Below, in pieces: positions 24,265 to 42,561 of a stretch of 64,000 bases of DNA. The number at the start of each line of letters is the position of its first letter. Positions within the stretch are counted from its first letter, which is position 1. The DNA is from Patescibacteria group bacterium (lineage in GTDB: Bacteria; Patescibacteriota; Patescibacteriia; Patescibacteriales; UBA12465). Location of the stretch: the NCBI GenBank assembly GCA_041649315.1, contig JBAZNJ010000001.1:197869-261868 (forward strand), given 5' to 3'. The translations under genes and the position numbers were made by a program. The notes beneath the pieces were generated by a model. The model had not been told where the DNA came from and searched no databases. It worked only from the letters and a program-made list of their open reading frames with translations.

Positions 24265-24296
24265 AATATTTATTGTTTAACTAAAAAATTACTGAA

Positions 24297-25322
24297 ATGG
24301 CAAAAATTCCTCAAACAATCAAAGAAGCTGGCGCGCCGCTCGCTAAATATTTAAAGCTAAACGGGTTCCAACTGATAAACCAAGGAAAGGTAAGAGATAC
24401 CTGGGCATCGCCCGCTCAATCATTCTTATTGATGATTGCTTCGGACAGAATCAGCGCCTTCGATTTCGTACTTAACGCGCTAATTTCTAAAAAGGGCGAG
24501 GTGTTGACGGCGCTTACTCATTTTTGGCTTAATGGTCCTTTGAGCATATTCCCTAATCACCTTATGAAATCCAGGGAAATGCCGGGCGCCAATACCGCCT
24601 ATGACCTATTTAAAAATAGCTTACCGGGGCTACCTGTCGAACGTTGCTTAGTAGTAGAAAACCTGGGTGGTAAAGTTTACCCCTTCGAACTCATCTATCG
24701 CGGATACATCGGTGGATCGGTCTATAAAAAATATTTAAAAACCGGCAAGGCCGGCGGGCACGAACTGCCTCCTAATCTTCCTAAATGGTCAAAATTGAAC
24801 AAGGCAATATTTACGCCTTCGACCAAAGAAGAGGTTGGCCACGATATTAATATCGACGCTAAATATTACTATGAAAAAATGGGCGAAGAAGGGCGAGAAA
24901 CCGAAGAAATGGTTGCTCACGCCTATGCAACCGCTCATGATTACGCCGCGGCCAAAGGTATCTTAATATTAGATACTAAATTCGAAGTCGCCAGGCGCCG
25001 TATCGTCGATGAAGTCCTAACGCCGGATTCTTCTCGCTTCGCTTTGAAAGATGACTGGGAGAGAGCCATGGCGGAAAAACGGGATCCTTATTTCTACGAC
25101 AAACAACTGGTGCGCGACTGGTTAATGGGAGTCGAAACTCCTTTCGAAATTACTGGAATCAACCAGCTTGATCCAACGAATGAAGAACATCTCAAATTCG
25201 TCGGCAATCTGGAAATCCCGGAAGACATAAAAGCGGAAACTACCCGTCGCTATCTCCAAATTTTTGAATGGTTAACCGGACAAACTCTGGAGTCATATCA
25301 AAAAGAAAAAATGGGGGTATAG
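24297..25322 (+). CDS. purC: phosphoribosylaminoimidazole-succinocarboxamide (SAICAR) synthase, long form
   Basis: GKVRDTW, IASDRISAFD, ILILDTKFE and TPDSSRF motifs. 341 aa. Confidence 0.85.
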   Translation: MAKIPQTIKEAGAPLAKYLKLNGFQLINQGKVRDTWASPAQSFLLMIASDRISAFDFVLNALISKKGEVLTALTHFWLNGPLSIFPNHLMKSREMPGANTAYDLFKNSLPGLPVERCLVVENLGGKVYPFELIYRGYIGGSVYKKYLKTGKAGGHELPPNLPKWSKLNKAIFTPSTKEEVGHDINIDAKYYYEKMGEEGRETEEMVAHAYATAHDYAAAKGILILDTKFEVARRRIVDEVLTPDSSRFALKDDWERAMAEKRDPYFYDKQLVRDWLMGVETPFEITGINQLDPTNEEHLKFVGNLEIPEDIKAETTRRYLQIFEWLTGQTLESYQKEKMGV

Positions 25323-26073: not shown

Positions 26074-26174
26074 AACACGCGGGAATAAAGCATGTGTCGA
26101 CCGTTTTCACGAAATATATAATCCCGCTTTCATAAAACGTAAACAACTATTCTTATAACCAGCTCTAAATATCA

Positions 26175-26206
26175 AAAAAACGCTCGTGCTTAGACGAGCG
26201 TTTTGT
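26175..26206. terminator. bidirectional rho-independent terminator (clpP on +, surface locus on -)
   Basis: CGCTCGT-GCTTAG-ACGAGCG hairpin flanked by A7 upstream and T4 downstream, so a T-run follows the hairpin on both strands. Confidence 0.75.
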
Positions 26207-26291: not shown

Positions 26292-27344
26292 CTATTCAAT
26301 CATTAAAGAATTAATCATCATTTCCAAGATATTAGCATAGGTCATCCGGCCGGACGCGCTGGAAATATATGAAATTATAAAAATATTCTTTTGATTTTTG
26401 TCAGTCAAATAAAAATTAAAACCGTCCGGACCGGCAATGCCTTCCCAGGTTTCCCCGCTTTTCAAGCGGTCATAAGAAACGGTCTCGCCGGAAAAATAAC
26501 TTTCATACCAATTTAAGATATTCGCACCAGTCGGGTTATCCTGGACTGAAATCTGGATTAAAGAATCATCAGGCGCGGTAAAAATCGTTAACCCGTCGCC
26601 GGCATCAAGCACCGGCCAATTCTTCGGATATAACAATTGATAAGCCGGATTACTGCCAATATAAATCTCTAAAGCCGAATTGTTTTCCAGGCGCCCCTCG
26701 CCGGCCGGATTATAATTATTTTTAATTTCCGCTAAATCATCATAACCATCATTATCACTATCACTCAAATCAAGAGCGGTGCCAAAAACCGCTTCTTCAT
26801 CGTCGTTTAAGCCGTCATTATCGCTGTCTAAAAGCGGGGGCAAATCCATAGCGGTCTTTAAAGGCGTTTCCTCGTTCATTATTATTTCTTCTTCCGCTCC
26901 GGCCTCATTTTCAACATCCGGTTCCATAATAACCGGCTCGGCTGTATCGACTTCGGCAATCTCCGGAACTAAATTAACTTCCGGCTCCGGTGCTTCAAGC
27001 GGCTCCTCGACCGCTTTTTCTTCAATTGCCGCGGAAGGAACTTCCTGTGTAGCCGGACGAGCGGCAGGAGAAATTATAAAACGATAAACAAGAAAAATTA
27101 AAAAGCCGATAACGATCAGGCCACCGACAATAATAATCAAACCGACCGCTTTAAAATTATGCTTAGCGGAAACACTGGATTGGCTAACATTGCTTACCCC
27201 GGAACCGCCGCCGGATTTTAAAGCATCGGGATTTAAAAAACGACCGCTCAAACGCTCTGCGGCGGGCATATTACGGATTAAAAAATCTTCTTTTACTTCC
27301 GCTTCATTAGCTTGATTATTCTCTTTATTATTTTCTTCGGACAT
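26292..27344 (-). CDS. single-pass membrane protein with thrombospondin-type-3-like Ca-binding repeats (350 aa from ATG 27344)
   Basis: TM helix AVGLIIIVGGLIVIGFLIFLVY. Repeats DSDNDGLNDDEE and DSDNDGYDDLAE. The start is moved to MSEENNK because the longer ORF overlaps the upstream 75-aa ORF. Confidence 0.65.
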   Translation of the reverse strand: MSEENNKENNQANEAEVKEDFLIRNMPAAERLSGRFLNPDALKSGGGSGVSNVSQSSVSAKHNFKAVGLIIIVGGLIVIGFLIFLVYRFIISPAARPATQEVPSAAIEEKAVEEPLEAPEPEVNLVPEIAEVDTAEPVIMEPDVENEAGAEEEIIMNEETPLKTAMDLPPLLDSDNDGLNDDEEAVFGTALDLSDSDNDGYDDLAEIKNNYNPAGEGRLENNSALEIYIGSNPAYQLLYPKNWPVLDAGDGLTIFTAPDDSLIQISVQDNPTGANILNWYESYFSGETVSYDRLKSGETWEGIAGPDGFNFYLTDKNQKNIFIISYISSASGRMTYANILEMMINSLMIE

Positions 27345-27352
27345 AAAAATTT

Positions 27353-27580
27353 TTACCACAAGACCAAAAAGGCGATTAAAACCATTAAAGCGGCCATTAA
27401 TATACCTAAAATCAACCACTTTTTAAAATGGCTATCCGAGGTCCGCGGCATCGTATGCAGCTTCAAGGACAAACGCGAGGCCTTGGTTTTAGATTCCAGC
27501 TTCGCTCCAGCTAAAGAAGCTGAATCTAATAATGATTTATCGCTTGCCTTATCGTTGAACATAATTAATTTTAAAAACAA
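27353..27580 (-). CDS. small tail-anchored membrane protein (75 aa)
   Basis: ORF track. C-terminal TM WLILGILMAALMVLIAFLVLW. It tiles exactly between neighbours, 18 nt after the upstream stop and 8 nt before the downstream ATG. Confidence 0.4.
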   Translation of the reverse strand: MFLKLIMFNDKASDKSLLDSASLAGAKLESKTKASRLSLKLHTMPRTSDSHFKKWLILGILMAALMVLIAFLVLW

Positions 27581-27598
27581 AATTCTGAACCGAAAATC

Positions 27599-28441
27599 TT
27601 ATTGGACTTCCGCGGCCGTATCGGCTAATTTTCCGGCACCCAGCGGATTATAGCCATTCTTTACTTCATCGCCATCCGAATAATCATCACCATCCGTATC
27701 CGGGTTTAAAGGATCGGTCTTAAAAATCTTCACTTCTTCATAATCGCTTAAACCATCATTATCAGTATCAATCAGGTTAGGATTAGTACCTAATGTCTGT
27801 TCTTCATCATCGCTTAAACCGTCGCCATCGGAATCAATAAAAGAAATCGGGTTTTCTTCTACAAATTCATTATCCTGGCCTTCAACCATAGGGTAAATAA
27901 AATCTTCAGATATTGTTTCATTAGGAGTTAATACCTCAATATTATCCGCTAATTCTTCACTCTCTCCGGGAGAGACAAAAGAACCAAGATCCGCGCCAGA
28001 TTCAAGATCGGCCGTTTCCGAAACTTCCGGAATCATTTCTTCAGCCGGAGTTTCAACGATAGTTTCTGTCGGCGTCGGCGTCGGATTTAAATTAAACCCT
28101 GTTCCGCTAAAAAATTTACTATAAACTAAATATCCGCCTAAACCAACAATAGCGACAACTATCAAAATCAAGACGATCCTGAACCAAGGACCGCCGGACT
28201 TTTCATCCTGGCCGTCTTCTTCGCTAGCGGAATTAAGCCCCATCCGTCGCGTTTCAATTTCCGAATTTGACGCGGCACCAGTTAACCCAGCCGGCCCGGA
28301 AGCCGACAAACCTGGCGCGACTCTGGCTTTAGCCGAATTATTAGCCATTTCGGACGCAGATTCCTGGCTTTCGGTTTCCGCGAAAATATCATCTACCGGC
28401 GATTGGTTTTGATTATGAGGACTGTTTAAGTCATTAAACAT
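27599..28441 (-). CDS. single-pass membrane protein with thrombospondin-type-3-like repeats (280 aa), paralogous in layout to 26292-27344
   Basis: TM helix [22 protein letters not shown]. Repeats [24 protein letters not shown] and [12 protein letters not shown]. Confidence 0.7.
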
Positions 28442-28555
28442 ATTTTTTTCTTTATTTATTTTCTACAATATATTTAAATTTAATTATCTTTTTTAATTAT
28501 ACCCAATAATCACGTTTTTGGCTAATTATTCCCATCGGATTTATTATTTTTTTCC

Positions 28556-28882
28556 TTATTCTGAGACGGTCGTCTCTTCTGGGATGTTTTCCGCTGTTTC
28601 TTCGGGTTGCTCCAATTCCTCCTCGGATTCAAGCAAGGGACTATTAACTTTATAGACCATAATCGCTCCGTCCTCATCTCTCTCCATCACCTCGACCTCA
28701 ATATCACTTGGTAGCCCGAGCAAGGCCTTGTCTTCGCCATCTAAAAACCTGGCCGTCGGAATAATTTTTTTATCAATTTGATCAGATAACGATTTTCTAA
28801 AGATCAAAATTGCAAAAACAACCAGAATTATTAATAAAACCGTGGTTAAAATCAAAATGATTATTTTTTTGTTTTTTGGCAT
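28556..28882 (-). CDS. small N-terminally anchored acidic protein (108 aa)
   Basis: ORF track. TM IIILILTTVLLIILVVFAILIF followed by an acidic tail. It lies 20 nt downstream of the 1292-aa gene. Confidence 0.5.
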   Translation of the reverse strand: MPKNKKIIILILTTVLLIILVVFAILIFRKSLSDQIDKKIIPTARFLDGEDKALLGLPSDIEVEVMERDEDGAIMVYKVNSPLLESEEELEQPEETAENIPEETTVSE

Positions 28883-28902
28883 AGTGATTAACTTAAATAA
28901 CC

Positions 28903-31900
28903 TTAATATTGACTATCTCTTAACTGCTCAATACATGACCCTCCTACACATATTTTATCGCCACAACTCATCGGACATGTCTGGCCGGTACTCCAAGTAT
29001 TAGGACTACATTTCAAGGTGCAGCCAGAACAAACCATCTGGGTAAGAGGGTGGCCACCGGTACAACCAGCCGGGGAGCTAGTGAGGATTTCTCGAGTGGC
29101 TATTTGTCCTTCTGATGTACAACGGCTCCAATTCGAATAAGTAAAAGAGGTACAAGTTGAAGCGGTCGGGGTGGTTGGAGTAGTTGGGGTAGTTGGAGTA
29201 GTTGGGGTCGTCGGGGTAGTCGGAGTGGTTGGAGTAGTCGGGTTAGTAGCGACAGCCCCCGTAGGATTGAATTCTCCGGCATAAAAAGTATAGCGGCAAT
29301 AAACAGTAGTACCAGATTCATAAGCGTCTTCCGCCCAAATTTGATAAACGCCATCAAGATAAAGAGCATTTCCTCCGTTCTGATCATTTATAGGTTTGAC
29401 TGAAGTCGCTGTCGGCCAACTGGAATCATTAAAACTAATAGCATTCCAACCATTATAATAGGTTCCTGTGCATTTCCAATCCGTAACTGCACTAGTGGTC
29501 ATACTGTTACAAGGGCTTTGATTAAGTGTGGCGGCTAAACCAAACTTAGTCCCTGTATCTCTTGCTTTAATCGCTAAGACGTTCTTGCCCGGCTGGATTG
29601 TAACATCAAACTCCTGTATACATTTCCAGCATATCCCCCCCGGGCAGCTAGAACAAGTCGGGTTAGAAAGATCCTGAGGATCAGTCGTACTAACTTTCGC
29701 TCCATTAAAATAAGTTGTCTGATAATTATCAACGCTAGTTTGAATATTAGCGGAAACCGGACAGCATTGATAGCTCTCATCAGCATTATACATACAAGTT
29801 TTATCAACTCCACAATTATTACAATATCCGCCGCAACCATCCGGACCGCAAGTTCGGTCCTCACAGCGCGGACGACAAACGTCAAAATTACTTAAATCAT
29901 AATTATAAACCAAGCGACAATAATAGGCCTCATAGCCGGAAATTGTGCTTTTCCCCCAGACATAAGGAAGATAAGCCGAATTAACTTGGTAATTTGGAAT
30001 ATTTTTTTGCCCTAATGAACTAGTTCGGTTTAAAACTACGGAATCATTAAAAGTCGTGGCACTCTTATTTTCCGTAAATTTAATATCGGTCCATCTATAA
30101 CCATCCGAATCGAGCAAAGTGCTATCAGCATCAAAGGTGTCGAAAGAAGACTGGCTGTAAGTCAGGGCCTGTCCGGTAACCGGCGCGCAACGCAAATGAG
30201 AATTAGTTGAGTCAATAACATCATAAGGCGCGTTGGTCGGACCGACTAACATCCGATAGGCCAACCCTTGGTTGCTAACCGCCGAACCGATGAAGAACCC
30301 TAAAACATTCTTTCCAGTTAAAAGCGTCCGGGTGGCCTTGCCTAAAGTGCTGGCTGAGGATGTCCGATAAAGATCAGAATTATTTAGGTACGCTATTTGC
30401 TTCTGGTTAGCATAAGATTCAACTGTCCCGACGCAATTTCCGCAATCTTTAGCGCAATTTCTACAGGTCTCCCAGGTGCAATTACCGTCCGAATTCTGCA
30501 AGCATTGGCAGTAACCGTCGCCGCAATATCCTCCCAAATCTTCCGGCGAAGAAAATAACGGCGACTTATAAACGCAATAGGTGTTATTTAAAATTACTTT
30601 CGGAGTTTCCTCTCCCGCTTTAGTCGTACAGCCATATTGATTATTAATACTGCTTCCCGCCGGACTAGTTGCGACCCCGCTTAGGCCATCGCAATCTTCA
30701 TAGCCGTCATTATAAATTCCGCCTTGTGCCTCCATATTCGGCCGTTGTTTTTCGCCGTCACCGCAGAAAGAATTAACTTTTAAAGTAAAAGATTTAGAAG
30801 CTGTAGTGCCATAATCATTTGTTCCTTGGATAGTTATCTCCTGGCCAGCTGACACGACCTTAGGGGCGCCAAGAATATCCTGTTTGGCCTTATCCGGCCC
30901 AGGGGCAATCCTTAAACCATCCGGCAAACCTGAGGCCGTGTACTTAATCGTATAATTACCTTGTTTTTCTAATCCTAAAGAACAGTAATAATCCTTATTG
31001 AGCCGCGCGGTTTCCGGACAATTAAAATTTAATTCTGGCGGCGTTACTTTAAACTTAATCTTTGTATCCTTAGAAGAAGAAACATTATATTTATCAGTTA
31101 CGGAAATCCGATAATTCAATTCTGCATCACTGGTAAATTTAACTGAGGTCGGGATCAAACCATTATGATTGATTTGATAACGATTGACGCCGGCTTCGAC
31201 TCCGGTCTTCTCCATATAGCTAAATACATTAAAAGTATTTGGAGAAATCTGATTTAAAACGCCAGAGGTCTTTGTTAATGAGACCGATTCCAAAACTGGC
31301 GGCGTAAAGTTGGCGCCGGAAAAAAAGAAACTATAATTAAAAGGTATTTTTGGATCAAGGGTGTATTCAATATCCTCCGCTTCAATAAAAGGCGCGGAGC
31401 CGACGATAGTAATCGGAATTTTTATTGCTGTAGTCCCCCCTCGTCCGTCGGTTACTGTTAATTTTACATCATAGGTCCCGGCTTGGCCGGCTTGAGACGA
31501 ATAAACTTTCTTCTGATTTGGATCGCTAGTATCTATTAACCTTGGCAATTCTTTCCAACCTGTCCAATCAGTCCCGCTCGTGTCTAAAAGCCAAGTCAAA
31601 GGATTGTTTTCCGCATCTGACATTTTTATAAAACCGCTAAACTCCTGTTCAACCGCTCCGACTAAAAATTCATCGGCCAACTCCGGCGGATTATTACCGG
31701 CTTGTCCAATCGTGCTCGCTCCAGCGATAACGCAGGCCGAACCCGATTCATAAGCCGGAGAAAAAACATAATTTAACGGCGCGGCAGCGGTTTCTAAAGT
31801 CGCACAAAGATTATAATTAGAGCCGGTCCGATCCGCCGAATAGGCGAAAGCATAACTGCCAGCCGGTAAAATCAAAGACAAAGAATCTTCTTCGGGATCA

Positions 31901-32781
31901 TTCACAAATCTCTTGGATTCTTCGTTCCAACAAGTCGCGGCGCTATATCCCGGACAAGGACCTAAACGGTTAATCGGATCGAAAAAATTCTGACCAGCCG
32001 CCAATTCGGTTAAAAGGGCCTGGGACCAGCTCGGCCAAACCGAAATGCTCCGGCGGTTTAAATAAGTACCAGCGCTTAATAAAGGATATTTATTATTTAC
32101 CGAGCGAAATCGGGATAAATATTCTTTCAATTCTTCTAATTGGCCAATCCGTTTTATATCGCGAGTTATTTTCGCTTTAATGCTGTCACAGAAGAAATTA
32201 TCCGGACAATCAGTATCCGTTAAGCAATTTTTTGCTTCCTTAAGCAAGCAGGAACCAGCCGCTAAATCAGCTTCCTCGCCGGCGCAATATTGGCCCGGGC
32301 CGCAATCCGCATCGCTTGAACAGCTTAATGAAGATATTGAACAGGTATTCACCTGATCGGTCGGAAGATTAGTATTAAATTTCCAATATTTAACAATCTG
32401 GCCTAAAATATCCACGGTATTAGGCGCCGGATCTTGATTATAAGAGATTAAATAAATATTAGTATAGATTTTTGGCGGCTCCGAATTATAGTCAACATTA
32501 GCGGCTCCGACATAAACCGTCCGGCCGTCGCGGATTGCTTCATAACCGTCAACTATAAGCGCTTGCGGCGAACCAGCAAAACCCTGACTAACATACCAAC
32601 GAGCGACGCTATAATGGTTCGGGTTTGGCACGATGCGGACCGCGATCGCATCGGCGCTGTCCGCCGGATTAGCCGTACTCTGAGCGGCGGAATGCTTCAA
32701 AACAACAGCAAAAGAAACTAACAATAATCCAACAACCGCCATGGCCGCTAACTTAAATCTTATTTTTTTAATTCTATTCAT
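28903..32781 (-). CDS. giant secreted Cys-rich adhesin-like protein (1292 aa)
   Basis: Signal peptide. PKD-like segment (YDVKLTVTDGRGGTTAIKIPITI) and an Ig-like 'SGLPDGLRI' segment. One CGPDGCGG Cys repeat, two jelly-roll-like copies ending in YYCRLVY and VYCRYTF, a (TTP)n linker and a Cys-rich tail with a WSRC motif. Confidence 0.8.
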   Translation of the reverse strand: MNRIKKIRFKLAAMAVVGLLLVSFAVVLKHSAAQSTANPADSADAIAVRIVPNPNHYSVARWYVSQGFAGSPQALIVDGYEAIRDGRTVYVGAANVDYNSEPPKIYTNIYLISYNQDPAPNTVDILGQIVKYWKFNTNLPTDQVNTCSISSLSCSSDADCGPGQYCAGEEADLAAGSCLLKEAKNCLTDTDCPDNFFCDSIKAKITRDIKRIGQLEELKEYLSRFRSVNNKYPLLSAGTYLNRRSISVWPSWSQALLTELAAGQNFFDPINRLGPCPGYSAATCWNEESKRFVNDPEEDSLSLILPAGSYAFAYSADRTGSNYNLCATLETAAAPLNYVFSPAYESGSACVIAGASTIGQAGNNPPELADEFLVGAVEQEFSGFIKMSDAENNPLTWLLDTSGTDWTGWKELPRLIDTSDPNQKKVYSSQAGQAGTYDVKLTVTDGRGGTTAIKIPITIVGSAPFIEAEDIEYTLDPKIPFNYSFFFSGANFTPPVLESVSLTKTSGVLNQISPNTFNVFSYMEKTGVEAGVNRYQINHNGLIPTSVKFTSDAELNYRISVTDKYNVSSSKDTKIKFKVTPPELNFNCPETARLNKDYYCSLGLEKQGNYTIKYTASGLPDGLRIAPGPDKAKQDILGAPKVVSAGQEITIQGTNDYGTTASKSFTLKVNSFCGDGEKQRPNMEAQGGIYNDGYEDCDGLSGVATSPAGSSINNQYGCTTKAGEETPKVILNNTYCVYKSPLFSSPEDLGGYCGDGYCQCLQNSDGNCTWETCRNCAKDCGNCVGTVESYANQKQIAYLNNSDLYRTSSASTLGKATRTLLTGKNVLGFFIGSAVSNQGLAYRMLVGPTNAPYDVIDSTNSHLRCAPVTGQALTYSQSSFDTFDADSTLLDSDGYRWTDIKFTENKSATTFNDSVVLNRTSSLGQKNIPNYQVNSAYLPYVWGKSTISGYEAYYCRLVYNYDLSNFDVCRPRCEDRTCGPDGCGGYCNNCGVDKTCMYNADESYQCCPVSANIQTSVDNYQTTYFNGAKVSTTDPQDLSNPTCSSCPGGICWKCIQEFDVTIQPGKNVLAIKARDTGTKFGLAATLNQSPCNSMTTSAVTDWKCTGTYYNGWNAISFNDSSWPTATSVKPINDQNGGNALYLDGVYQIWAEDAYESGTTVYCRYTFYAGEFNPTGAVATNPTTPTTPTTPTTPTTPTTPTTPTTPTASTCTSFTYSNWSRCTSEGQIATREILTSSPAGCTGGHPLTQMVCSGCTLKCSPNTWSTGQTCPMSCGDKICVGGSCIEQLRDSQY
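29164..29250 (-). repeat. tandem 9-bp (Thr-Thr-Pro)n linker repeat inside the 1292-aa gene
   Basis: The protein reads NPTTPTTPTTPTTPTTPTTPTTPTTPT. The DNA shows ggnGTnGTn periodicity on the + strand. Confidence 0.85.
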
Positions 32782-32806
32782 ATACTAAAATGTAATAATA
32801 ATCTAT

Positions 32807-35800: not shown

Positions 35801-38800
35801 CGCGATAAAAGTACCGGCCGGACAAACGCCTTCACCATAATTCCGCTCTTCTAATAATAAGACGTTCCCGTTAAAACTATTCGTATCCATCTTCTTATTA
35901 AAATCAACCTTAAGCACGGCATTCCGACAAACATTATTATCTAAATGCTTAGGGGAGCTTAAATCGATCTTCGGCCGCGCCTGACAACAAGTATCAAGCC
36001 CGCAGCCGATATTTTCCGGCGAACCGCAATCTAAATCATTAGTACAGCCGCAGCATAAACCGCGATCATCGCCGGAACAATTACCTTTATCTGCCTCACA
36101 ACTAAGCTTAGAATTGCGGGCGGCGCAGGCATCAGAATATTCCACTCCCTCAACTGTTATCGGCTCGCCCGGCTGGCAGCAACAAGTACCGCAATCCGCA
36201 GAAGACCCGCCGAGATTGCCTTCCGGAGAAAAACAGCCAAAACCTTGAACATTACAAACCTCAGGATCACAAAGAGAAGTATCGCCGGCTGTACATATCA
36301 ATCCCGCCCCGGCTGGTTTATTTGGGCAATATTGCTCGCAAGCGGAAATACTGCTAAAAGAATTTTCTGTTCCTCTAACTGGAGTTGAAGATGCGCATTG
36401 GTTAGGATTACTGGCCGAGCAATCATAATAAGCACACCAACCGGCATCCGCCCCCTCGGCAATCTGATTTCCTAAACGACAAATATCATCATCGGTTGCC
36501 GTTGTTCTATCGGAATCAAAGCAACAACGGGGGTTAGCTCGACAATCACCAAAATCCGTTAAACCCGGGCATGGGTCATTCTGCGGACAGGTTTTTTCAC
36601 AAATTTCTAAACTTTTATAAGGCCCGATCTTTAGCGGATTGGTCGCCGCGCATTCATTAGCATTCGTGGCCGAACAATCATAATAAGCGCAATAGCCAAA
36701 ATCCGGATGGGACGGATCAGCGCTTACTAATCCGTTATTATCGCTGCCGCCGCGGCAAATATCATCGGCCGAATCGCTGGTGCCGCGCGAATCCAAACAA
36801 CAAACACCGGCATGTTCTAAACATCCGGCCGCGCTTAAACTAGAGCAATCGCCACAAAAGCCGTTCGGGAAATTATCATTATCTATTTCGCAATATTGGC
36901 CGCTATGGCCGGAACAATTACAAGTCGCGTCGCGTATTCCGGGATCTTCGCCGGCCGAAGCACAACCGCCACAAAGGCCTAGGCCGATATTTGTATTATT
37001 TTGGCCATCTGTTAATGAAATATCACTACCGCAAGTCCCCTCGCATTGCAAGCCGGCACAGCAATCGCGCGCACTTTCCCCGATTGTACAACAGCAGTCG
37101 CAACTGGCGGCAATCGGCTCTAAGCATTTATTAGTTTCCGCACAAATTGAATCTCCCGGGCAAATTTCTTCCGAGGCACAACAGCCGGATCCATTTACTT
37201 CTATACAAGAAAATTCTTCCGAACAAAGCGAACAAACGGAAATTGGATCTATACAAGTATTACCATTCCCTCGTGCCCATCCATCCGGACAGGAAGTAAC
37301 GCTTTCTATTGTCCAACGGTTTCCTATTTCCTCACTAATATTTTGACAAACTTTTTCTGCTTCGTATTCCTGGCTATTCAAAGTATAAGAAAAAGTTTGG
37401 CTTAAATCGCAGATCGCGTCAGCGCCTTTCTCAAGACAGCGATTAACCGTAGAATCATAAGAACAACCATTCGTCCCTAAGCCGCCGCAACCAGAAACGC
37501 TGATACAACTAAAATCACAATCGGCAATCGCTTTTTGCCCGCCGGCATAAGGAGAACAAAGACCGGGCGTATTCGGACAATAATCATTGGTCTGGCAAGT
37601 ACCATAGTATTCAGATAAACCGGCACAGCTATAAGCATAAGGATTTTCTACTAAATCACCAAAACCGGTACTGAATTTCCATTCAAAAACCGAAGTCGGA
37701 ATATCAACGAAACAATCATTTAAAGAATCAACGCAGCGGCCTTTTCGATAAGTATTTTGCGGACAGCAAACCTGCGTGCCGCAATCCGCGTCAACCCGGC
37801 ATTCTTCCACAGCAAAATCAAGGGCGTTGCCGGTTAAACTATTGCTAACTACTGAAACCGGGCCGGAAATCGCGCCAGCCGGAACTTCGGTTTCAATCAT
37901 ATCCGCCCGCCCATCAAGCTCAATCATCCCGACTGCATTCCGATCATAATTAAATTTTATTAAGCCCTCGCTGTCTTCCCGACCGAAATATTCTCCCCAA
38001 AGGGTTACCGGCGACGCGACCGGACCGCTCAACGGTTCTAATTTACATAAACTCGGCGCCAACGGAGCATTTTTATCCGCTAAGAAAATATTGGGATTTA
38101 ATTTTTCCGTATTAATTACAGCGTCCCCTAAATCAACCATGATAACTTGCGACCCGTCCTCTAAACCGGCCGGAACTTTAACAACGATCTGATTATCTTT
38201 CCAAACCGAATTAAGGCACATTTCCGGAAAATCATAAGTCGCTTCGGTCGCGCCGAAAAAAACCCGGGAAGTGCCGCGGGCGCCGCCAAAACCGTCGCCG
38301 CGGATAGTAACATATTGGCCCGGAGCGCCGCTAAGCGGCGAAAAAGACGCAATAAAAGGTCCATCGCCCGCTTCGCTTTCTTTTACAAAACGAAGGTAAT
38401 TGCTTTTTTCGGCCTGGCCGGATAAATTTACCGTCACGAAACTGCCGGATTCCCCGGCCTTAATATTCGGAGTAAGCGAAGTACCGCTTAAGCCCTCGGG
38501 ATTTGTAAAAACTGACTCTATCGCCCGGACATTAGTTTTATAATTACCAAAATAAGCGGCGGCTGAATATAAATTAACTCCTTGATAATTAACTTCGGAA
38601 CTTAAGGCGCCGCGATTAGGATCAAGATAGCATAAACCCGGACGAACAATATTATTGGCTCGGAAATTCGGAATTTCCGGACCAAAATCATCGTCGGTAT
38701 AATCGCTCGCTCCTTCCTGGCTTACTACCTGGATCGGACCGGAAATCGCGCCAGCCGGAACCGCAATAATTATTTGATCATCGCGCCAAAAATCCGAACA

Positions 38801-39763
38801 GGAGGTATTAAGGACTGACGGGGCAATTCCTTCAACCGGATTGCCGCTTCCGGTAAAAAGAACTTTACTGGCGCCATCCGCGTATTCGCCAAAATTTCTT
38901 CCAAAAATCGTAATAAAATTATCAACCGCGCCGTTCGGCGTTAAAAGGTCGCAAACACCCGAGCAATCATCGTCAGAAATACATGACTGATTAGGATTAT
39001 CAATGCAGAAACCGCCTAAAGGACTTATCTCCGTAATCACCGGCGGCCCATAGCAAAGACAAGTTTCTGGATTACAACTTAAATATTCCGCGCATTGATC
39101 ATTATCGGCTTCACAGGTTTCATTACTCAAATCCCCATCACAAGATGCTCCCAAACCGCCGCGCGGCCGGCAAGCGCAATTAGCTTCATCGCAATAATCG
39201 CTAGACGCGCAAATCTGATTTACGGCCTGGCAACCGGGATTCGGGCTGGAATCGCAGCTAGTCGGATTACCGATTCCGGCGCCGGAACAATCCGACCCGA
39301 CACAAGGACCCCATGATCCATTAGAATAAAGCATTGAACCGCCGCAGCCGCAAGGCGCCAAGCTCCCTTCTTCGTAACCGCCCCCAGTGCCGCTAACTGC
39401 GTTACCTAAACGCGTTAAAATAAAAGTAGCAATTCCCCAAGACGCCAAAATAATCACTAAGCCGATAACGCCGCTTTTTAAAATTTTCTTGGCTTTTTCT
39501 ACTTTTTCTTCTTCGCCGCCGGAAGTCATCCAAATAAAGCCGCCATAAATCACGAAACCGACCGCGATAATTCCTAAAAACCCTAAAGCAATATTAATAA
39601 TCCGACCGGCAATCGTCCGCGGATCACCAGCCGCCAAAGCACCGTCCAAACCGCTCTCTACCGCCTCCGTACCGAAGTCCTGGGCAAATACCAAACGCGC
39701 TAAAAGCAGCCCACCGGCAATGAGTAAGAAAAATAATAAATTTTTACTGATTTTTTTTCGCAC
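32807..39763 (-). CDS. giant Cys-rich surface protein (2318 aa) with an N-terminal TrbC/VirB2-like pilin module
   Basis: Signal peptide ...RLVFAQ, then two TM helices flanking TSGGEEEKVEKAKKILK. Several IPT/TIG-like units follow (PVITEISPLGG.., FSPLSGAPGQYVTIRGDGFG, LEPLSGPVASPVTLWGEYFG). It also has FN3-like units, five tandem CxxxCxGKCGGAxDGCGGxC repeats and a C-terminal jelly-roll-like domain ending in CRYTF. Confidence 0.85.
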   Translation of the reverse strand: MRKKISKNLLFFLLIAGGLLLARLVFAQDFGTEAVESGLDGALAAGDPRTIAGRIINIALGFLGIIAVGFVIYGGFIWMTSGGEEEKVEKAKKILKSGVIGLVIILASWGIATFILTRLGNAVSGTGGGYEEGSLAPCGCGGSMLYSNGSWGPCVGSDCSGAGIGNPTSCDSSPNPGCQAVNQICASSDYCDEANCACRPRGGLGASCDGDLSNETCEADNDQCAEYLSCNPETCLCYGPPVITEISPLGGFCIDNPNQSCISDDDCSGVCDLLTPNGAVDNFITIFGRNFGEYADGASKVLFTGSGNPVEGIAPSVLNTSCSDFWRDDQIIIAVPAGAISGPIQVVSQEGASDYTDDDFGPEIPNFRANNIVRPGLCYLDPNRGALSSEVNYQGVNLYSAAAYFGNYKTNVRAIESVFTNPEGLSGTSLTPNIKAGESGSFVTVNLSGQAEKSNYLRFVKESEAGDGPFIASFSPLSGAPGQYVTIRGDGFGGARGTSRVFFGATEATYDFPEMCLNSVWKDNQIVVKVPAGLEDGSQVIMVDLGDAVINTEKLNPNIFLADKNAPLAPSLCKLEPLSGPVASPVTLWGEYFGREDSEGLIKFNYDRNAVGMIELDGRADMIETEVPAGAISGPVSVVSNSLTGNALDFAVEECRVDADCGTQVCCPQNTYRKGRCVDSLNDCFVDIPTSVFEWKFSTGFGDLVENPYAYSCAGLSEYYGTCQTNDYCPNTPGLCSPYAGGQKAIADCDFSCISVSGCGGLGTNGCSYDSTVNRCLEKGADAICDLSQTFSYTLNSQEYEAEKVCQNISEEIGNRWTIESVTSCPDGWARGNGNTCIDPISVCSLCSEEFSCIEVNGSGCCASEEICPGDSICAETNKCLEPIAASCDCCCTIGESARDCCAGLQCEGTCGSDISLTDGQNNTNIGLGLCGGCASAGEDPGIRDATCNCSGHSGQYCEIDNDNFPNGFCGDCSSLSAAGCLEHAGVCCLDSRGTSDSADDICRGGSDNNGLVSADPSHPDFGYCAYYDCSATNANECAATNPLKIGPYKSLEICEKTCPQNDPCPGLTDFGDCRANPRCCFDSDRTTATDDDICRLGNQIAEGADAGWCAYYDCSASNPNQCASSTPVRGTENSFSSISACEQYCPNKPAGAGLICTAGDTSLCDPEVCNVQGFGCFSPEGNLGGSSADCGTCCCQPGEPITVEGVEYSDACAARNSKLSCEADKGNCSGDDRGLCCGCTNDLDCGSPENIGCGLDTCCQARPKIDLSSPKHLDNNVCRNAVLKVDFNKKMDTNSFNGNVLLLEERNYGEGVCPAGTFIATGESLAEIALDNSDSDSFSLELKQSRLVRLSSRLASLWLKLFGRFNDSALADMPDPNKLYCAVPGDVSSENNGESTSLLFVPKRLLSPAANYYLIVLGDTELNSRSGVLSMEGIGLNGSGYLNVSKEDYDGGNYSSNDYVEGENIFFNKRTYKNSQIIKFTTLSGQDPTSGICAIDEVLVSPSSYLFKTSENSLDENDSDPAAKTFDTEADRDKVFAARAYSANGQILRPVSGYFWDWEFDIANGEVASLEEVSSDRILVRAEPGITDGETMITATVNMERFLDEGNCNDNLNCVCEGEICSNNCCNFYTGGDKFNNFSNIYLFLCNNPWPPVAPDGTWEPWFDNCPAGLGASCADYNYKFYYCRDAGAAGTLDDLPAIIDQAVIRGISSNLICSSDQSPCVSAGEVCGADKNGDSVPDGICIWNVLKESYFFREALPAGSEIIEAIDREIGGTVSLAWRSEAAQVYSYKIYYSSGSGEMFFKELKASEVCSLVDGSYECRSLINNLENNIPYIFKISAVSESRTESGLSGELSVMPTDKVPPATPAAPSLSVVDSLLKFSWPANADKVSFYRLYRGVSVKAYGESFDSAGPNTSLSFPLNQFSVGNNYFSLSAFDEYDNESIKSDELSCELSLREGCEDFSASDCGPQLDCCSKDCSGKCGGAPDGCGGTCTADCPEFEKCVNQVCEACVPDCAGKCGGAVDGCGGYCDDACSSSGEACINQRCQQICTPDCAGKCGGAVDGCGGTCTTACPQGQECINEVCRNICTPDCAGKCGGAADGCGGTCMAACPGFEKCVSQVCQACVPSCVGKAPCADNGCGGTCAVPCNGDDPCLQISVDNFYEVYLNGTKVAITYPSSSREYIDVYSENGMVSSRCSNDMCWTDIRPLPVTLRTGNNVLAIKAINDGGVYGLAARLVDGCNTVISTNNPNNWVCTEVTPAMNWMNTSFSTNSYWRAAIETGKTGNGNRLYPAVNQLWATTASGAKSTADTIYCRYTF
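33305..33844 (-). repeat. five tandem ~37-39-aa Cys-rich repeats (about 111-117 bp each) in the 2318-aa gene
   Basis: CSKDCSGKCGGAPDGCGGTCTADCPEFEKCVNQVCEA / CVPDCAGKCGGAVDGCGGYCDDAC.. / CTPDCAGKCGGAVDGCGGTCTTAC.. / CTPDCAGKCGGAADGCGGTCMAAC.. / CVPSCVGKAPCADNGCGGTCAVPC. Confidence 0.85.
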
Positions 39764-39788
39764 AGATTAAATTTAGTATTTACAAAAA

Positions 39789-42494
39789 TTATTGGCAACT
39801 TCCATTCGTGCCAAGTATATCGGTCGGGACACCGAAACAACAAGAAGGATATTCGTCGGTCGCCGAGCAACCCGGACCGATACTTGGCTTATAACAATTC
39901 TGATAAATATCTTTAACGCCGGAGCCGACCTGGACTTTATAAGTCATGGACTCGGCAAAAGGTGAATGAAAGATATTAACAATACTTAAATCCGGCTCGC
40001 CATCCAAAGGTTCAACATCTAAATTATCTACTTTCATCCAATATCCGAGCGGGGACGGCGAAGCCGCGCTTAAATTAATCAATCTATGTTCAACCGTAGA
40101 AGTTCCGCTCTTTACCTTTAAGCCGCCGCTTTGCAAAGTGCTATTCATCATTAAAGTATTAAACTTAATTTTAACCGGCTCAACCAAAGGCAGGCCGCTT
40201 TGCCCGGCCGAAGGGCTTATTTCCGTGATCACCGGCGGGTCTAAAGCAATCTGATCGTTGATGTAAAAAGACCATTTATATTTATCCTTTTTCCCAGCGT
40301 TAACTATTGAATCATAATTATCATGATAAAAATCCAAAGGCCCGTCGGCATAGGCGCTCCGATCGCCGTCAAAAGAATTGATTGCCGCGTCCACGATCCC
40401 GTCCAAGGAGCTTAAATTTCCAGCCGGATAATTCTGGCCGGCGTCATCCTGGCAGGTCTTATAACCCAAAGAAGTGTCTCGGCAATTTATAAACGGCACT
40501 AAAGCCGAACAGTCGCTATCGCTTTCACAGGTCTTAAGATTGGCCGGCAGCATTTCCATAGCTAAATGGCTATTAGCCGGCAAACAATAAATTTCCTCGC
40601 CGCAACCGTTGACGCCGCATTTAACATCGGAAATAAACTCCAAGGTCTTATAATTATTGCTCACGACGAATTTCCCGCCCAAATAATCACCGACGCAAAC
40701 ATTGTTTTCGCATTTATAAGATCGACATTCCGAGGCCGCGCTGCAAGCCGCACCGGCCGGAAAAGCTTCAGTAGCGGCATTAACGACCCGGATATGGCCA
40801 GCCACTTCTCCGGCCGTGCCGGAAACGGTCGCCGGATTAATCGCTTCATTAAAATTAACCTGGATTACAGAATTCATCGGCCGATCTTTTTTATCCAACG
40901 GCTCATCGGTTTTTTCTAAATCCGTGCCGCCAGAAAACGACTTCAATCCTAAAACCGAAACAGCCGTTGTCGTTAATGAAATATTATTACCGTCCTCGCC
41001 AGCAACCCGCGCCGTTAAAATCACTTTATCTCCTTCTTTAAAAACTTCCAAATCTTCCCGGCCGCTTAATTTCGCCGTAATATTTTTTGCTAATTCATCA
41101 TTACTATAACTATCCGGCACTAAAATATTATTATTCTCTCCAGAAGCGGCAAAAGAATATATTTCCCCCCCGACCTCGAGGGTATCAGCTAAGCGTTCCG
41201 GGCTGATTTTTATATTCCATAGATATTCTGCCTTAACCGAATCTGATTTAAAGGTTAAATAATTATTAAAAACCGCCTGGCCGGAAACCAAATCCGCAAT
41301 ACCTAAAAGATTATTGGCACCGTCAAAAAGCTGGACTTTGTCATCGGCGCCGTCAGGCACGGAAACGATAAAATCAGAAACGCTTCCATGATAATCTAAA
41401 ATCACCGAAGCGCCACTCGGCGTCGTCGGAGTGGCCGGTGTAACCGAAATCACTTCGGCCGGCGCATAAACCGCCGGCTCACCCAGGACCGTTATCGCCG
41501 CGCTAGCCGGTGCGGCTGGAGTTATTTGCTGATAAATATCTTTAATATTATCCGGAATCGGAAATACTCCGGTCGGGACGACTAAAGGCGGGGTTAGATC
41601 TAATTTATCGCTAACTGTAAATTCCCATTGAGCGCCGGAGACATTGCAACCAGTGAACATTGAAGAATCGTCTGTTTTCTTAATATAATCGCTTAATTTA
41701 ACAGAATAAGCGGTTTCCCCGCTGGCCGAACCTAAAAAGCTCAAAGGGCTTAAAATAAAAGTTTTATCCTCGCCGGTAACCGTTACTAAAACATCGGTCA
41801 CATTCGCGTTCTCCTCCGGGCAAGAAGAAGCCGAACAAGAATCGCCTAAAGCGCTCTTATACAAACGGACCGCTAAAGGATTAAGGCGATTACAATCTTC
41901 TTTATCACAAACGCAAGGCGTTGCCTGGCTATTAATACAAAGGGTGTCGGTTTTTATTTTTTCTTTTAGGGTAACCATGATTGAAGTATTGCGCGGCACG
42001 TCCTTTTGGCCGTCGGCCGGATAAACACTATCAACCGCGCAGGCACCGATGGCCGCTGTGCCAGAGCCGGAGATACCGGCCCGATTTGAATCGGCCGGAC
42101 TGCCAGTAATTCCTAAAGCGTCGGATAAGCGAGAAAGTAAAAAAGTTGTTATTCCCCAAGAAGACAAAACTATAACCAGGCCAATAACCGCGTTTTTGAG
42201 AATATTTTTCGCTTTCGTTATTTTTTCTTCATCGCCGCCCGAAGTCGTCCAGATAAACCCGGCGTACATTATTATCACAACCGCGAGTACTCCTAAAAAG
42301 CTTAAGGCAATCTGGATAATCCGGCCGATAATCATCCGCGGGTCAGCCGAAGACAGGGTCCCGCCCAAGCCGCTTTCCACCGCTTCTACGCCAAAATCCT
42401 GAGCCGCGACTGGTAAAGAAAACAAAAAACCGCCCGCCGCAACTAAGGCCAGCCAAGCAAAAATAATCATAATCGATTTTACTTTTCTAGTCAT
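39789..42494 (-). CDS. large surface protein (901 aa from ATG 42494) with an N-terminal TrbC/VirB2-like pilin module and Big_5-type Ig domains
   Basis: MTRKVKSIMIIFAWLALVAAGGFLFSLPVAAQ signal, then a module 65/97 identical to that of the 2318-aa protein. SbsA/Big_5-like segments (VDSVYPADGQKDVPRNTSIMVTL, MNSVIQVNFNEAINPATVSG, ISPSAGQSGLPLVEPVKIKFN). The longer track ORF (to 42737) overlaps the divergent rel gene and is rejected. Confidence 0.8.
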   Translation of the reverse strand: MTRKVKSIMIIFAWLALVAAGGFLFSLPVAAQDFGVEAVESGLGGTLSSADPRMIIGRIIQIALSFLGVLAVVIIMYAGFIWTTSGGDEEKITKAKNILKNAVIGLVIVLSSWGITTFLLSRLSDALGITGSPADSNRAGISGSGTAAIGACAVDSVYPADGQKDVPRNTSIMVTLKEKIKTDTLCINSQATPCVCDKEDCNRLNPLAVRLYKSALGDSCSASSCPEENANVTDVLVTVTGEDKTFILSPLSFLGSASGETAYSVKLSDYIKKTDDSSMFTGCNVSGAQWEFTVSDKLDLTPPLVVPTGVFPIPDNIKDIYQQITPAAPASAAITVLGEPAVYAPAEVISVTPATPTTPSGASVILDYHGSVSDFIVSVPDGADDKVQLFDGANNLLGIADLVSGQAVFNNYLTFKSDSVKAEYLWNIKISPERLADTLEVGGEIYSFAASGENNNILVPDSYSNDELAKNITAKLSGREDLEVFKEGDKVILTARVAGEDGNNISLTTTAVSVLGLKSFSGGTDLEKTDEPLDKKDRPMNSVIQVNFNEAINPATVSGTAGEVAGHIRVVNAATEAFPAGAACSAASECRSYKCENNVCVGDYLGGKFVVSNNYKTLEFISDVKCGVNGCGEEIYCLPANSHLAMEMLPANLKTCESDSDCSALVPFINCRDTSLGYKTCQDDAGQNYPAGNLSSLDGIVDAAINSFDGDRSAYADGPLDFYHDNYDSIVNAGKKDKYKWSFYINDQIALDPPVITEISPSAGQSGLPLVEPVKIKFNTLMMNSTLQSGGLKVKSGTSTVEHRLINLSAASPSPLGYWMKVDNLDVEPLDGEPDLSIVNIFHSPFAESMTYKVQVGSGVKDIYQNCYKPSIGPGCSATDEYPSCCFGVPTDILGTNGSCQ

Positions 42495-42512: not shown

Positions 42513-42561
42513 TTTAAAATTATGCTTGTCTATGCTATAATAATATAGCTTTATTATAACA
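42513..42561. promoter_or_regulatory. divergent extended -10 promoter candidates (rel on +, surface locus on -)
   Basis: Plus strand: TTTAAA (42513-18), 17 nt, then TGcTATAAT (42533-41). Minus strand: TGtTATAAT, which is the reverse complement of 42553-42561. Confidence 0.4.

Follow-up and report, generated by a model that had tools for sequence, protein, structure and literature searches.

Giant proteins with N-terminal VirB2-like pilin modules in a seven-gene surface locus of a Falkowbacteria-type Patescibacterium

Results

A seven-gene locus on the minus strand

The DNA considered here is a 64-kb window of a Patescibacteria group bacterium (GCA_041649315.1, contig JBAZNJ010000001.1, positions 197,869 to 261,868 of the forward strand); 'the window' means this whole stretch, and coordinates count from its first letter. 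From 42494 down to 26292 it carries seven co-directional minus-strand genes, named here G1 to G7, which are called independently in the NCBI, JGI and Logan assemblies. G1 (39789-42494) encodes 901 amino acids (aa), G2 (32807-39763) 2318 aa from a GTG start, G3 (28903-32781) 1292 aa, G4 (28556-28882) 108 aa, G5 (27599-28441) 280 aa, G6 (27353-27562) 69 aa, and G7 (26292-27344) 350 aa. The three large products contain 24 (G1), 171 (G2, 7.4%), and 54 (G3) cysteines. By prediction, each of the seven products is either extracytoplasmic or anchored in the membrane, in agreement with an earlier note, written from the letters of this DNA, that called the region a surface locus.

The same note gave intergenic gaps from G1 to G7 of 25, 25, 20, 114, 18, and 8 nt, and these stand for the open reading frames (ORFs) as first called. 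Its start of G6, TTG at 27580 (75 aa), was six codons off. The ATG at 27562 is favored by orthologue alignment and by an exact match to NCBI MFA4999948.1, and is the most likely start, so that the G5-G6 gap becomes 36 nt. The 75-aa version is absent from a 15-billion-protein collection by exact look-up.

The window comes from a metagenome-assembled genome, and we therefore compared the products with public records. Exact products of G1, G2, G4, G5, G6, and G7 were found in NCBI, JGI, ENA or Logan records. NCBI accessions MFA4999947-952 belong to the locus products, with tags WC545_01130-01145 shown for four of them; G2 is MFA4999952.1, G4 is MFA4999950.1, and G7 is MFA4999947.1. The exact G1 sequence is titled 'MAG: pilin' at NCBI and is also present in Logan SRR8542065. 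The exact G3 product, tried with two start choices, is not in the 15-billion-protein collection, where its six neighbors are present, and the public G3 record may differ in start or in sequence. Both G2 and G3 contain internal repeats, but these are 61-79% identical in DNA, which is too diverged for collapse in assembly. An 87%-identical strain has a collinear G2 of 2283 aa, and orthologue lengths are concordant across hundreds of assemblies.

VirB2-like modules of G1 and G2

G1 and G2 begin with paralogous pilin modules. The G1 module (aa 32-126; 42117-42401, minus strand) consists of the segment 'QDFGxExVESGL..DPR', helix 1, the loop 'TSGGDEEKxxKAK', and helix 2, and the G2 module (aa 28-121; 39401-39682, minus strand) is its paralogue. 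Against the Pfam family T4SS_pilin (PF18895, cutoff 26.6 bits), named after the type IV secretion system (T4SS), G1 scores 45.2 bits and G2 44.3 bits, and the isolated G1 module 50.9 bits, so that the TrbC/VirB2-like modules that the earlier note saw on two giants are recovered above cutoff. In a 45-sequence subfamily set, which combines the G1 and G2 modules with small pilins related to them, PF18895 is matched by 45/45 and TrbC/VirB2 (PF04956) by 35/45 members, with a best E of 6.9e-7. The NCBIfam family NF045849, pilin-like proteins of Mycoplasma integrative and conjugative elements (ICE), is approached with 34-37 bits at a cutoff of 40.

The predicted layout is the same in both proteins, namely a Sec signal (G1 aa 1-31) and two hydrophobic helices with a short charged loop between them. 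Hydropathy segments lie at 4-32, 53-87, and 98-121 in G1 and at 4-30, 50-81, and 93-120 in G2. An AxA-type site before 'QDFG' is conserved, and the distribution of hydropathy and charge fits both termini lying outside. An AlphaFold2 (AF2) model of G1, built on a 97-sequence alignment, has a predicted local distance difference test score (pLDDT) of 84.4, with helices at 52-83 and 89-126; a disordered linker (124-142) leads into a confident all-beta ectodomain.

The two modules are 65% identical over a 101-aa core and 71% identical over 279 nt of DNA; over the full 125-135-aa N-termini, signal peptides included, the identity is 56-58%. When five genomes are compared, the modules group by gene rather than by genome, which means that the duplication is old and that both copies are under strong constraint by purifying selection. 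Gene conversion or concerted evolution between them is rejected on the same clustering.

Within the G1 family, no region is more conserved than the module: identity is 67% there (helices 71-72%, loop 70%) but falls to 54% in the ectodomain, 28% in the signal peptide, and 26% in the linker. The polar motifs DPR, GRII, and TSGG-EEK of the hairpin are invariant. Transmembrane helices of G4-G7 range from 17 to 61% identity, with 52-61% in G5 and G7 and 17-43% in G4 and G6. This conservation, together with the likeness to a free pilin described below, is unlike what is expected for a passive anchor. On the other hand, canonical VirB2 pilins are small and linked to virB4, virB6, and virB3, whereas the hairpin occupies only the first 5-14% of G1 and G2, and the locus lacks this linkage. 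The two proteins are best described as fusion derivatives of the T4SS_pilin/TrbC family and not as ordinary members.

A free pilin of the same genome and the wider family

A free pilin of the same subfamily was found in the locus genome. This protein, P0403 (125 aa, titled 'MAG: pilin'), is the first gene product of a six-gene tandem array (L009:17-2817) of small VirB2-like pilins of 125-176 aa. It was assigned to the locus genome by its contig, which is as long (376,996 bp) as the one with the locus, and by its occurrence in the same Logan sample. P0403 is 52% identical to the G1 module and 57% to the G2 module, and the likeness includes the mature extracellular segment 'DFGxExVESGL...DPR'. 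Its identity to its five array neighbors is only 29-37%, and the other array members are 28-38% identical to everything else. The C-terminal end of P0403 coincides with the start of the G1 and G2 linkers. By these identities, P0403 (hereafter arr1) and the G1 and G2 modules form one subfamily, and the locus thereby plugs into the published VirB2-like pilin system of Patescibacteria. A relative has the same array (L010:10001-12525), and this array, a G1 orthologue, and a G3 orthologue are all on contigs of one size, 373,377 bp.

Published Patescibacterial arrays of VirB2-like pilins consist of two to eleven tandem genes for small divergent paralogues (PMC12102498). G1 and G2 are adjacent pilin-module genes, yet they are giant and 65% alike over the module core, versus about 25% for the published arrays.

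At E<=1e-3, a profile of the G1 and G2 modules matched 43,454 of 1.84 billion cluster representatives; with the limit set to E<=1e-10, it matched 11,345. The best 149 representatives comprise 20 small pilins, 18 mid-size proteins, 58 multi-module ORFs, and 53 large single-module proteins. The last group (650-4410 aa, one N-terminal module) has G1-like or G2-like ectodomains throughout. The 58 multi-module representatives (e.g. P0253-P0259, P0331, P0390) are single ORFs of 187-1775 aa with 2-8 tandem modules; they may be polyproteins, or else gene calling, through read-through or a wrong genetic code, may have joined tandem pilin genes.

Ectodomains of the three giants

Along its whole length (39789-42494, minus strand), G1 is composed of the Sec signal, the hairpin, a disordered linker of about 20 aa, and an all-beta, disulfide-rich ectodomain of Big_5 and immunoglobulin (Ig)-like type. 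Big_5 scores 55.8 bits, above threshold, and is followed by further beta domains, and the 24 cysteines are mostly invariant. The top PDB matches of the G1 model by Foldseek are domains 1-6 of the S-layer protein SbsC (E 8e-9, probability 1.0), Sap, and EA1; macroglobulin MG domains and MSCRAMM adhesins are matched as well. As modeled, the ectodomain has a beads-on-a-string Ig architecture.

G2 continues from its signal and VirB2-like hairpin into Cys-rich knots, three IPT/TIG-type domains, a long Cys-rich region, Big_5-like and FN3-like domains, and a variable tail. Its TIG match is above threshold with 51.9 bits (64.1 bits on a sub-segment), its Big_5 match is weak, and its fn3 match is weak as well, with 17.6 bits against a cutoff of 25. 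Hence, among the Ig folds first read from the sequence, Big_5 and IPT/TIG hold, whereas FN3 stays below threshold; the labels FN3, PKD, and jelly-roll given there are weakly supported. The GTG start is kept in 2/3 orthologues compared (L007 and L008).

Residues 1-1950 of G2 are 42-53% identical in relatives, but residues 1951-2318 are not conserved. This tail (32807-33913, minus strand) contains five 'CxPDCxGKCGGAxDGCGGxC' repeats of about 38 aa and then a beta-rich module. The corresponding 114-nt DNA repeats are 61-78% identical, and the strain variant differs by about one repeat. The tail is not present in the G2 orthologues of L002, L003, and L005, and was detected by tblastn in 2/80 loci at E<=1e-10 and 4/80 at E<=1e-6.

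G3 has a predicted cleavable signal peptide and no predicted membrane anchor. Its core (aa 1-780) is 42-51% identical in relatives, and most of its 446 homologues cover about 57-61% of the query, with differing C-terminal regions (He_PIG, CarboxypepD_reg, Beta_helix, and others). In an AF2 model of aa 1-790 (pLDDT 84.5), tandem Ig/cadherin-like domains span aa 365-670. Foldseek matches for these domains are titin and protocadherins, a surface protein of Bacteroides that binds glycans, an RTX-adhesin extender, and the Ig domains of PrgB; they bear out the Ig-like segments that the earlier note had assigned to G3.

Between signal peptide and Ig domains, aa 200-345 of G3 (31747-32184, minus strand) are modeled as a long helix (201-229) followed by strands of a small sheet, with no hydrophobic N-terminal helix. 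Pfam T2SSG is matched in 3/30 G3 orthologues (best E 0.0025), and hhalign aligns residues 201-235 with alpha1-C in a type IV pilin from Patescibacteria (P 1.7e-4, probability 50%); a profile search of the PDB gave no match. We tentatively describe this domain as pseudopilin-like, resembling the head of T2SS-G (type II secretion system) or type IV pilins. Some G3 orthologues carry a large insertion between 'DPINK' and 'TCWD'.

The G3 tail (aa 781-1292; 28903-30441, minus strand) has two beta-rich copies, a CGPDGCGG knot, a (TTP)9 linker at 29165-29247, matching the (TTP)n linker noticed earlier, and a Cys-rich end. It is not present in L002, L003, and L005. Over 215 aa, copy 2 and the G2 tail are paralogous with 33% identity (E 1e-19), so the two tails share one beta-rich cassette in the locus genome, and this cassette is patchily distributed among relatives. 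The name 'jelly-roll' for it rests on internal similarity only. The G3 tail also gives a weak 47-aa match (E 9e-4) to the 122-aa PDB chain 5iaz, 'beta-galactosidase 1', which we take to be a lectin-like domain. When ten sub-segments were searched with Pfam and against PDB sequences, the Cys-rich and tail regions gave only weak matches (Dickkopf_N, 22 bits). A diversity-generating retroelement was rejected as the source of tail variation, because no reverse-transcriptase domain was seen among the Pfam matches of the window, and the window holds no near-identical pair of template and variable repeats.

Small membrane proteins G4-G7

Hydropathy gives G4 an N-terminal signal-anchor helix and an ectodomain of about 70 aa. 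Its orthologues, of 103-109 aa, are at the same position in six related loci.

G5 and G7 are predicted to be bitopic with the N-terminus in and the C-terminus out. In G5 a cytoplasmic N-terminus is followed by a transmembrane helix (aa 81-112), a Pro/Thr/Glu-rich spacer, and thrombospondin type 3 (TSP3) repeats at aa 203-266 (27644-27835). In G7 the N-terminus contains 'RNMP' and is followed by a transmembrane helix (aa 61-96), an acidic spacer, and TSP3 motifs at aa 173-206 (26727-26828). The earlier note placed TSP3 repeats on two small proteins. For G5 this is borne out by TSP3_bac (PF18884, cutoff 25 bits) with 73.4 bits, two exact DxDxDGxxDxxE motifs, and conservation in relatives. For G7 the score of 18 bits is below cutoff, yet there are two exact motifs (aa 173 and 195). 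The TSP3 regions of G5 and G7 are paralogous in DNA (73% over 80 nt).

The C-terminal globular part of G7, about 135 aa (26292-26700), is matched by Pfam PsbP in 3/4 orthologues (E 5e-4, 0.05, and 0.098) and not in the window copy, which suggests a PsbP/Mog1-like extracytoplasmic domain. G6 has a cytoplasmic 'RLSLxLHTMP' motif and a transmembrane helix at its C-terminus, and would be tail-anchored. A conserved cytoplasmic '(H/R)(T/N)MP' motif upstream of the transmembrane helix is common to G6 and G7, here and in their L006-L008 orthologues, the G7 form being 'VxxDxxxxNMP' (27165-27344), and both G5 and G6 begin with MFND. PapD-like Pfam matches were not found in G4-G7 at E<=0.01.

Distribution and gene order

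G1 has >200 full-length homologues of about 880-920 aa with 48-62% identity. The named ones are labeled Patescibacteria or Candidatus Falkowbacteria, and these labels agree with the small-genome bacterium proposed in the earlier note, here a Patescibacterium related to Falkowbacteria. In a scan of one genome per GTDB species, at least 205 locus stretches were confirmed, and the locus is single-copy.

Gene order was counted in 80 species-representative genomes. G2 directly follows G1 on the same strand in 70/74 informative loci, the G3 core is next in 55/59, and relA is divergent upstream in 68/73. G2 orthologues that directly follow G1 in relatives are 1922-2103 aa long. The full seven-gene order is kept in 3/3 relatives with 10 kb available downstream of G3. 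In these three, the sizes are 886-901 (G1), 1922-1939 (G2), 1020-1663 (G3), 103-109 (G4), 240-263 (G5), 64-66 (G6), and 338-343 aa (G7), and clpP and secDF are downstream. The G6 copy of one of them (L008) is present though uncalled. Taken together, the locus looks like a vertically inherited core-chromosome operon of Falkowbacteria-type Patescibacteria, as judged by sequence and synteny.

Many ENA 'binchicken' MAG records with the locus (L014, L017, L020, and about 30 others) are titled 'uncultured Gammaproteobacteria bacterium' and one (L058) 'Bacillota'; these titles are probably placeholder or erroneous taxonomy.

Transcription signals

Both transcription signals that the earlier note had placed at the ends of the locus are present. 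An extended -10 candidate, TGTTATAAT (42553-42561, minus strand), was found by consensus match 59 nt 5' of the G1 ATG, within the 93-nt divergent spacer common to G1 and relA/spoT; this spacer also contains a plus-strand promoter-like site for relA. An intrinsic-terminator-like hairpin (26167-26204, minus strand; 11-bp stem with 5 G-C pairs and T-run, 26204-26177) sits between the convergent genes G7 and clpP, and with an A-run on its opposite side it is potentially bidirectional.

The earlier note took the gene spacing and these two signals to suggest a single transcription unit. However, a promoter-like consensus match, TAGCCA-17-TATAAT (28496-28524, minus strand), occurs in the 114-nt G4/G5 gap as a possible internal promoter, in a region with 48 promoter-like consensus sites versus 32 expected by chance. 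One transcript for all seven genes is therefore plausible but not certain.

Neighborhood of the locus

Upstream neighbors are genes for an M16 peptidase, an AddA-like helicase, RuvB, QueA, signal peptidase I, HisRS, and the divergent relA/spoT. Downstream are the convergent clpP, then purC, purE, SecD, SecF, Wzy_C-TPR, PilD, FtsA, and FtsZ. The purE-like gene and purC (23725-25322, plus strand) lie between clpP and secD and are absent there in L006, L007, and L008, so they are a local insertion or rearrangement in otherwise kept synteny. Two genes of Wzy_C type (O-antigen ligase/oligosaccharyltransferase-like) are present at 18222-20879 and 56749-58113, both on the minus strand. One of them is TPR-fused and adjoins the prepilin peptidase gene pilD (17447-18211, minus strand), a pairing that is kept downstream of secDF in relatives; glycosylation of pilins or surface proteins is a possible role of this pair.

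The Pfam scan took in every window ORF of at least 110 aa not inside a larger gene. Its only T4SS-related match outside the locus was a solitary VirD4-like ATPase of the type IV coupling protein (T4CP) kind at 7806-9869 (minus strand), with TrwB_AAD_bind (E 5.6e-13), TraG-D_C, T4SS-DNA_transf, and a treble-clef zinc finger, flanked by RNase T-like exonuclease and radical-SAM/NrdD genes. A 450-aa protein (46645-47997, minus strand) has a sub-threshold match to Por_Secre_tail, a sorting domain of the type IX secretion system (24.8 bits, cutoff 27), an odd finding in a monoderm Patescibacterium. In a relative (L005:1-3973), the AddA/UvrD-type helicase contains Hint/intein-splicing domains, and its window orthologue (50985-54137) is without them.

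Discussion

Proposed function of G1 and G2

The gene order is conserved in relatives, the similarity to T4SS-pilin families is significant, and no artefact was found, which are the three points on which the earlier note had let its interpretation depend. We propose, at about even confidence, that the locus builds a fibril or adhesin complex at the cell surface, in which G1 and G2 are modular VirB2-class pilins with giant Ig-rich passengers, G3 is their secreted partner, and G4-G7 form a base. Homology, predicted topology, synteny, the pattern of conservation, and the variability of the tails are shown by the sequences, while surface assembly, co-assembly with small pilins, adhesion, and host contact are inferred.

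G1 and G2 would be exported via Sec and cut after the AxA-type site. The hairpin would insert as helix-loop-helix, with the Lys-rich loop in the cytoplasm and both termini outside, and beyond the point where the small pilin ends, a flexible linker would lead outward to the passengers of 770 aa (G1) and 2200 aa (G2). Besides anchoring the protein in the membrane, the hairpin could offer an assembly interface of pilin type, packing with the small pilin and with the hairpin of the other giant. Such packing might take place at a T4SS-type assembly site in the membrane, or G1 and G2 might be rare subunits in an extruded VirB2-type pilus, in which the C-terminus would face outward. G3 would be secreted without an anchor and dock non-covalently, G4-G7 would form a membrane-proximal, Ca-dependent base, and the species-variable tails of G2 and G3 would be ligand-binding, host-recognizing ends.

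Peptides can be displayed at the C-terminus of F-pilin. In the solved structures of conjugative pili it is the inter-helix loop that lines the lumen (PMC12037004). From this geometry and the F-pilin display we take the termini to be exterior, so that a C-terminal passenger could in principle point outward. For epibiotic growth, the one cultured Saccharibacterium studied by Tn-seq requires its T4SS, pilins included (PMC10633639); the role of this T4SS has been described as completely unknown (PMC10633639; PMC11665869), and no PrgB-like adhesin was detected in Patescibacteria (Quinonero-Coronel et al. 2025, PMC12102498). A family of extracytoplasmic thiol-disulfide oxidoreductases is enriched in candidate phyla radiation (CPR) bacteria (10.1101/335083), which fits the Cys-rich ectodomains.

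Several observations weigh against this proposal. No VirB4, VirB6, or VirB3 gene was found in the 64-kb window, nor within 10 kb upstream of the pilin array in the relative L010. When the 45-module profile was compared with PDB sequences, no solved conjugative pilin was matched at E<=10, so the tie to canonical VirB2 rests on the Pfam families. The four exceptions to the G1-G2 order are the most distant G1 homologues (41-43% identity), and the distant homologue that was examined (L086) stands alone amid housekeeping genes. Its neighbors include a PilT-like ATPase gene and no T4SS genes. Without adjacent G2 and G3, such homologues indicate that G1 can function outside the operon. The nearest structural matches of the G1 ectodomain are S-layer proteins, and a lectin-like reading of the G3 tail comes down to one weak 47-aa match.

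In addition, passengers of 770-2200 aa on every subunit are sterically incompatible with a homopolymeric pilus, and only sparse, tip, or basal incorporation is conceivable. It is decidedly unlikely, in our estimate, that G1 and G2 are true pilus subunits whose hairpins the T4SS extracts together with arr1, so that the pilus displays disulfide-stapled adhesins sparsely or at its tip. If it were so, these would be pilus adhesins of 770-2200 aa (up to about 4300 aa in relatives) with exchangeable ligand-binding tips and the first modular pilin of the conjugative (VirB2) class. They would also provide the host-contact adhesin so far lacking for the T4SS, which occurs in most Patescibacterial classes and which a cultured Saccharibacterium needs for growth.

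Alternative explanations

The locus could instead encode a passive, S-layer-like coat, in which the hairpin is exapted as a plain two-helix anchor unconnected with pilus or T4SS assembly, G1-G3 make a constitutive protective or structural layer, and G4-G7 are Ca-dependent spacers. Luef and colleagues reportedly showed S-layers on groundwater ultra-small bacteria by cryo-electron microscopy in 2015. The best PDB matches of the G1 model are the S-layer proteins SbsC, Sap, and EA1, no T4SS genes are nearby, and the locus, single-copy in at least 205 species-representative stretches, lies in an envelope-biogenesis and housekeeping neighborhood (signal peptidase I, SecD/SecF, Wzy_C-TPR, PilD, FtsA, FtsZ). 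But the Foldseek likeness is that of a generic Ig-like string, with TM-scores of about 0.1, and a passive anchor should drift like the G4 and G6 transmembrane helices (17-43%), whereas the hairpin is the most conserved part, with invariant polar motifs. The hairpin is, moreover, similar to a free pilin that the same genome encodes, the extracellular N-segment included. Cys contents of 4-7%, three different giants, and variable tips are atypical for lattice-forming S-layer proteins. We consider a coat unlikely, yet the main rival; if it were right, the locus would point to the envelope coat proteins of a major uncultured lineage.

Alternatively, G1-G3 could play the role of PrgB as mating-pair adhesins, stabilizing contact for DNA exchange or uptake by a T4SS rather than for epibiotic attachment. 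The modules are of the conjugative TrbC/VirB2 type, with a near-cutoff match to NF045849, the G3 Ig domains match those of PrgB (E 1.3e-9), and in class ABY1 T4SS loci associate with comF, recG, and radA (PMC12102498). The PrgB match, however, is generic Ig similarity among >1,000 hits. The VirD4-like coupling-protein gene at 7806-9869 could be counted in favor, but orphan T4CP homologues are ubiquitous in Patescibacteria (PMC12102498), which makes it uninformative here. Vertical inheritance, a syntenic chromosomal position, and the lack of relaxase, integrase, and other mobile-element genes count against a mating function, and relaxases are rare in Patescibacteria, with 109 homologues in 103/3,035 genomes (PMC12102498). 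We consider a mating role improbable.

That the giant ORFs are chimeric or repeat-collapsed and the small ones spurious, as the metagenomic source, the internal repeats, and the missing G3 product might hint, has practically no chance and is effectively ruled out by six exact products in independent NCBI, JGI, ENA or Logan records, the collinear 87%-identical strain, hundreds of orthologues agreeing in length and order, repeats too diverged to collapse, and AF2 models that are confident throughout the folded domains.

To return to the modular-pilin proposal, if the hairpin co-assembles, VirB2-class pilins can carry huge passengers, and host range may be written in the swappable G2 and G3 tails. 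The pairing of G1/G2 with arr1 would then be a defined target for multimer modeling, cryo-electron tomography, and metaproteomics. The locus is a concrete, testable candidate for a T4SS-linked adhesin, none of which was reported by the phylum-wide survey (PMC12102498).

Comparison with known systems

Regarding the anchoring, the earlier note found no sortase signal, SLH domain, T4SS gene, or class III signal in the locus, and we agree on each. The seven products have hydrophilic or Cys-rich C-termini, and their C-terminal 80 aa contain no LPXTG-like motif; no SLH or other wall-binding Pfam domain was matched in these products. G1 and G2 are neither sortase substrates nor SLH proteins. A six-frame regular-expression search for the class III signal (G/FTLxE) found none in G1-G3 or the window, where PilD is nevertheless encoded (17447-18211).

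Saccharimonadia and Microgenomatia have Pam pili (Troman et al. 2026, 10.64898/2026.03.03.709456), which are CPR-specific surface filaments of Ig-like proteins with small membrane-anchored accessory proteins, and are proposed to need no trans-envelope machine. Their pilins, however, have plain signal peptides, donor-strand exchange, and FimC/PapD-like chaperones, whereas G1 and G2 have VirB2-like hairpins and belong to a Falkowbacteria-type lineage. We set the Pam system aside as a different design.

Cysteines are few or absent in SbsC, Sap, and EA1. These Gram-positive S-layer proteins share the Ig-like beads-on-a-string arrangement with G1, but are bound to the wall by SLH domains or domains binding secondary cell wall polymer (SCWP) and form lattices, whereas G1 has a membrane hairpin. 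PrgB, like G3, is a large Ig-domain surface protein, and it serves a monoderm T4SS without a classical pilus adhesin. It is LPXTG/sortase-anchored and encoded in a plasmid conjugation operon, in contrast to the chromosomal, pilin-hairpin-anchored G1 and G2.

In modular type IV pilins such as PilB and PilC of Streptococcus sanguinis, a pilin module carries a grafted C-terminal adhesive domain that is displayed on the filament. The logic would be the same as in G1 and G2, that of a minor pilin sharing a polymerization module. Type IV pilins have a class III signal, processing by prepilin peptidase, and a single N-terminal helix; this pilin class is unrelated, and the passengers of G1 and G2 are 5-20 times larger.

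The closest relatives are the Patescibacterial T4SS pilins (Wang et al. 2023, PMC10633639; PMC12102498), which share family, Sec signal, hairpin, and phylum with G1 and G2. These small VirB2-like pilins and their arrays are already published, and the giant fusions are not mentioned in either paper. The published pilins are small, and were treated as small in the survey, whereas G1 and G2 have 901 and 2318 aa, with up to 4410 aa in relatives, and belong to a separate, conserved operon of seven genes, together with one secreted giant and four small membrane proteins, not beside virB4. Public annotation of the locus proteins reads 'pilin', 'Ig-like domain-containing', and 'IPT/TIG domain-containing', and no description of the giant fusions, the seven-gene operon, or the subfamily of arr1, G1, and G2 was found in the literature searched. 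The earlier view of an undescribed anchoring principle holds in this respect, but the hairpin is not an orphan device, as the modules are kin to the published small-pilin system. In this ultra-small bacterium, the module that the two giants share with its small pilins suggests a hitherto undescribed means of holding huge adhesin-like proteins at the surface of the cell or on a pilus.

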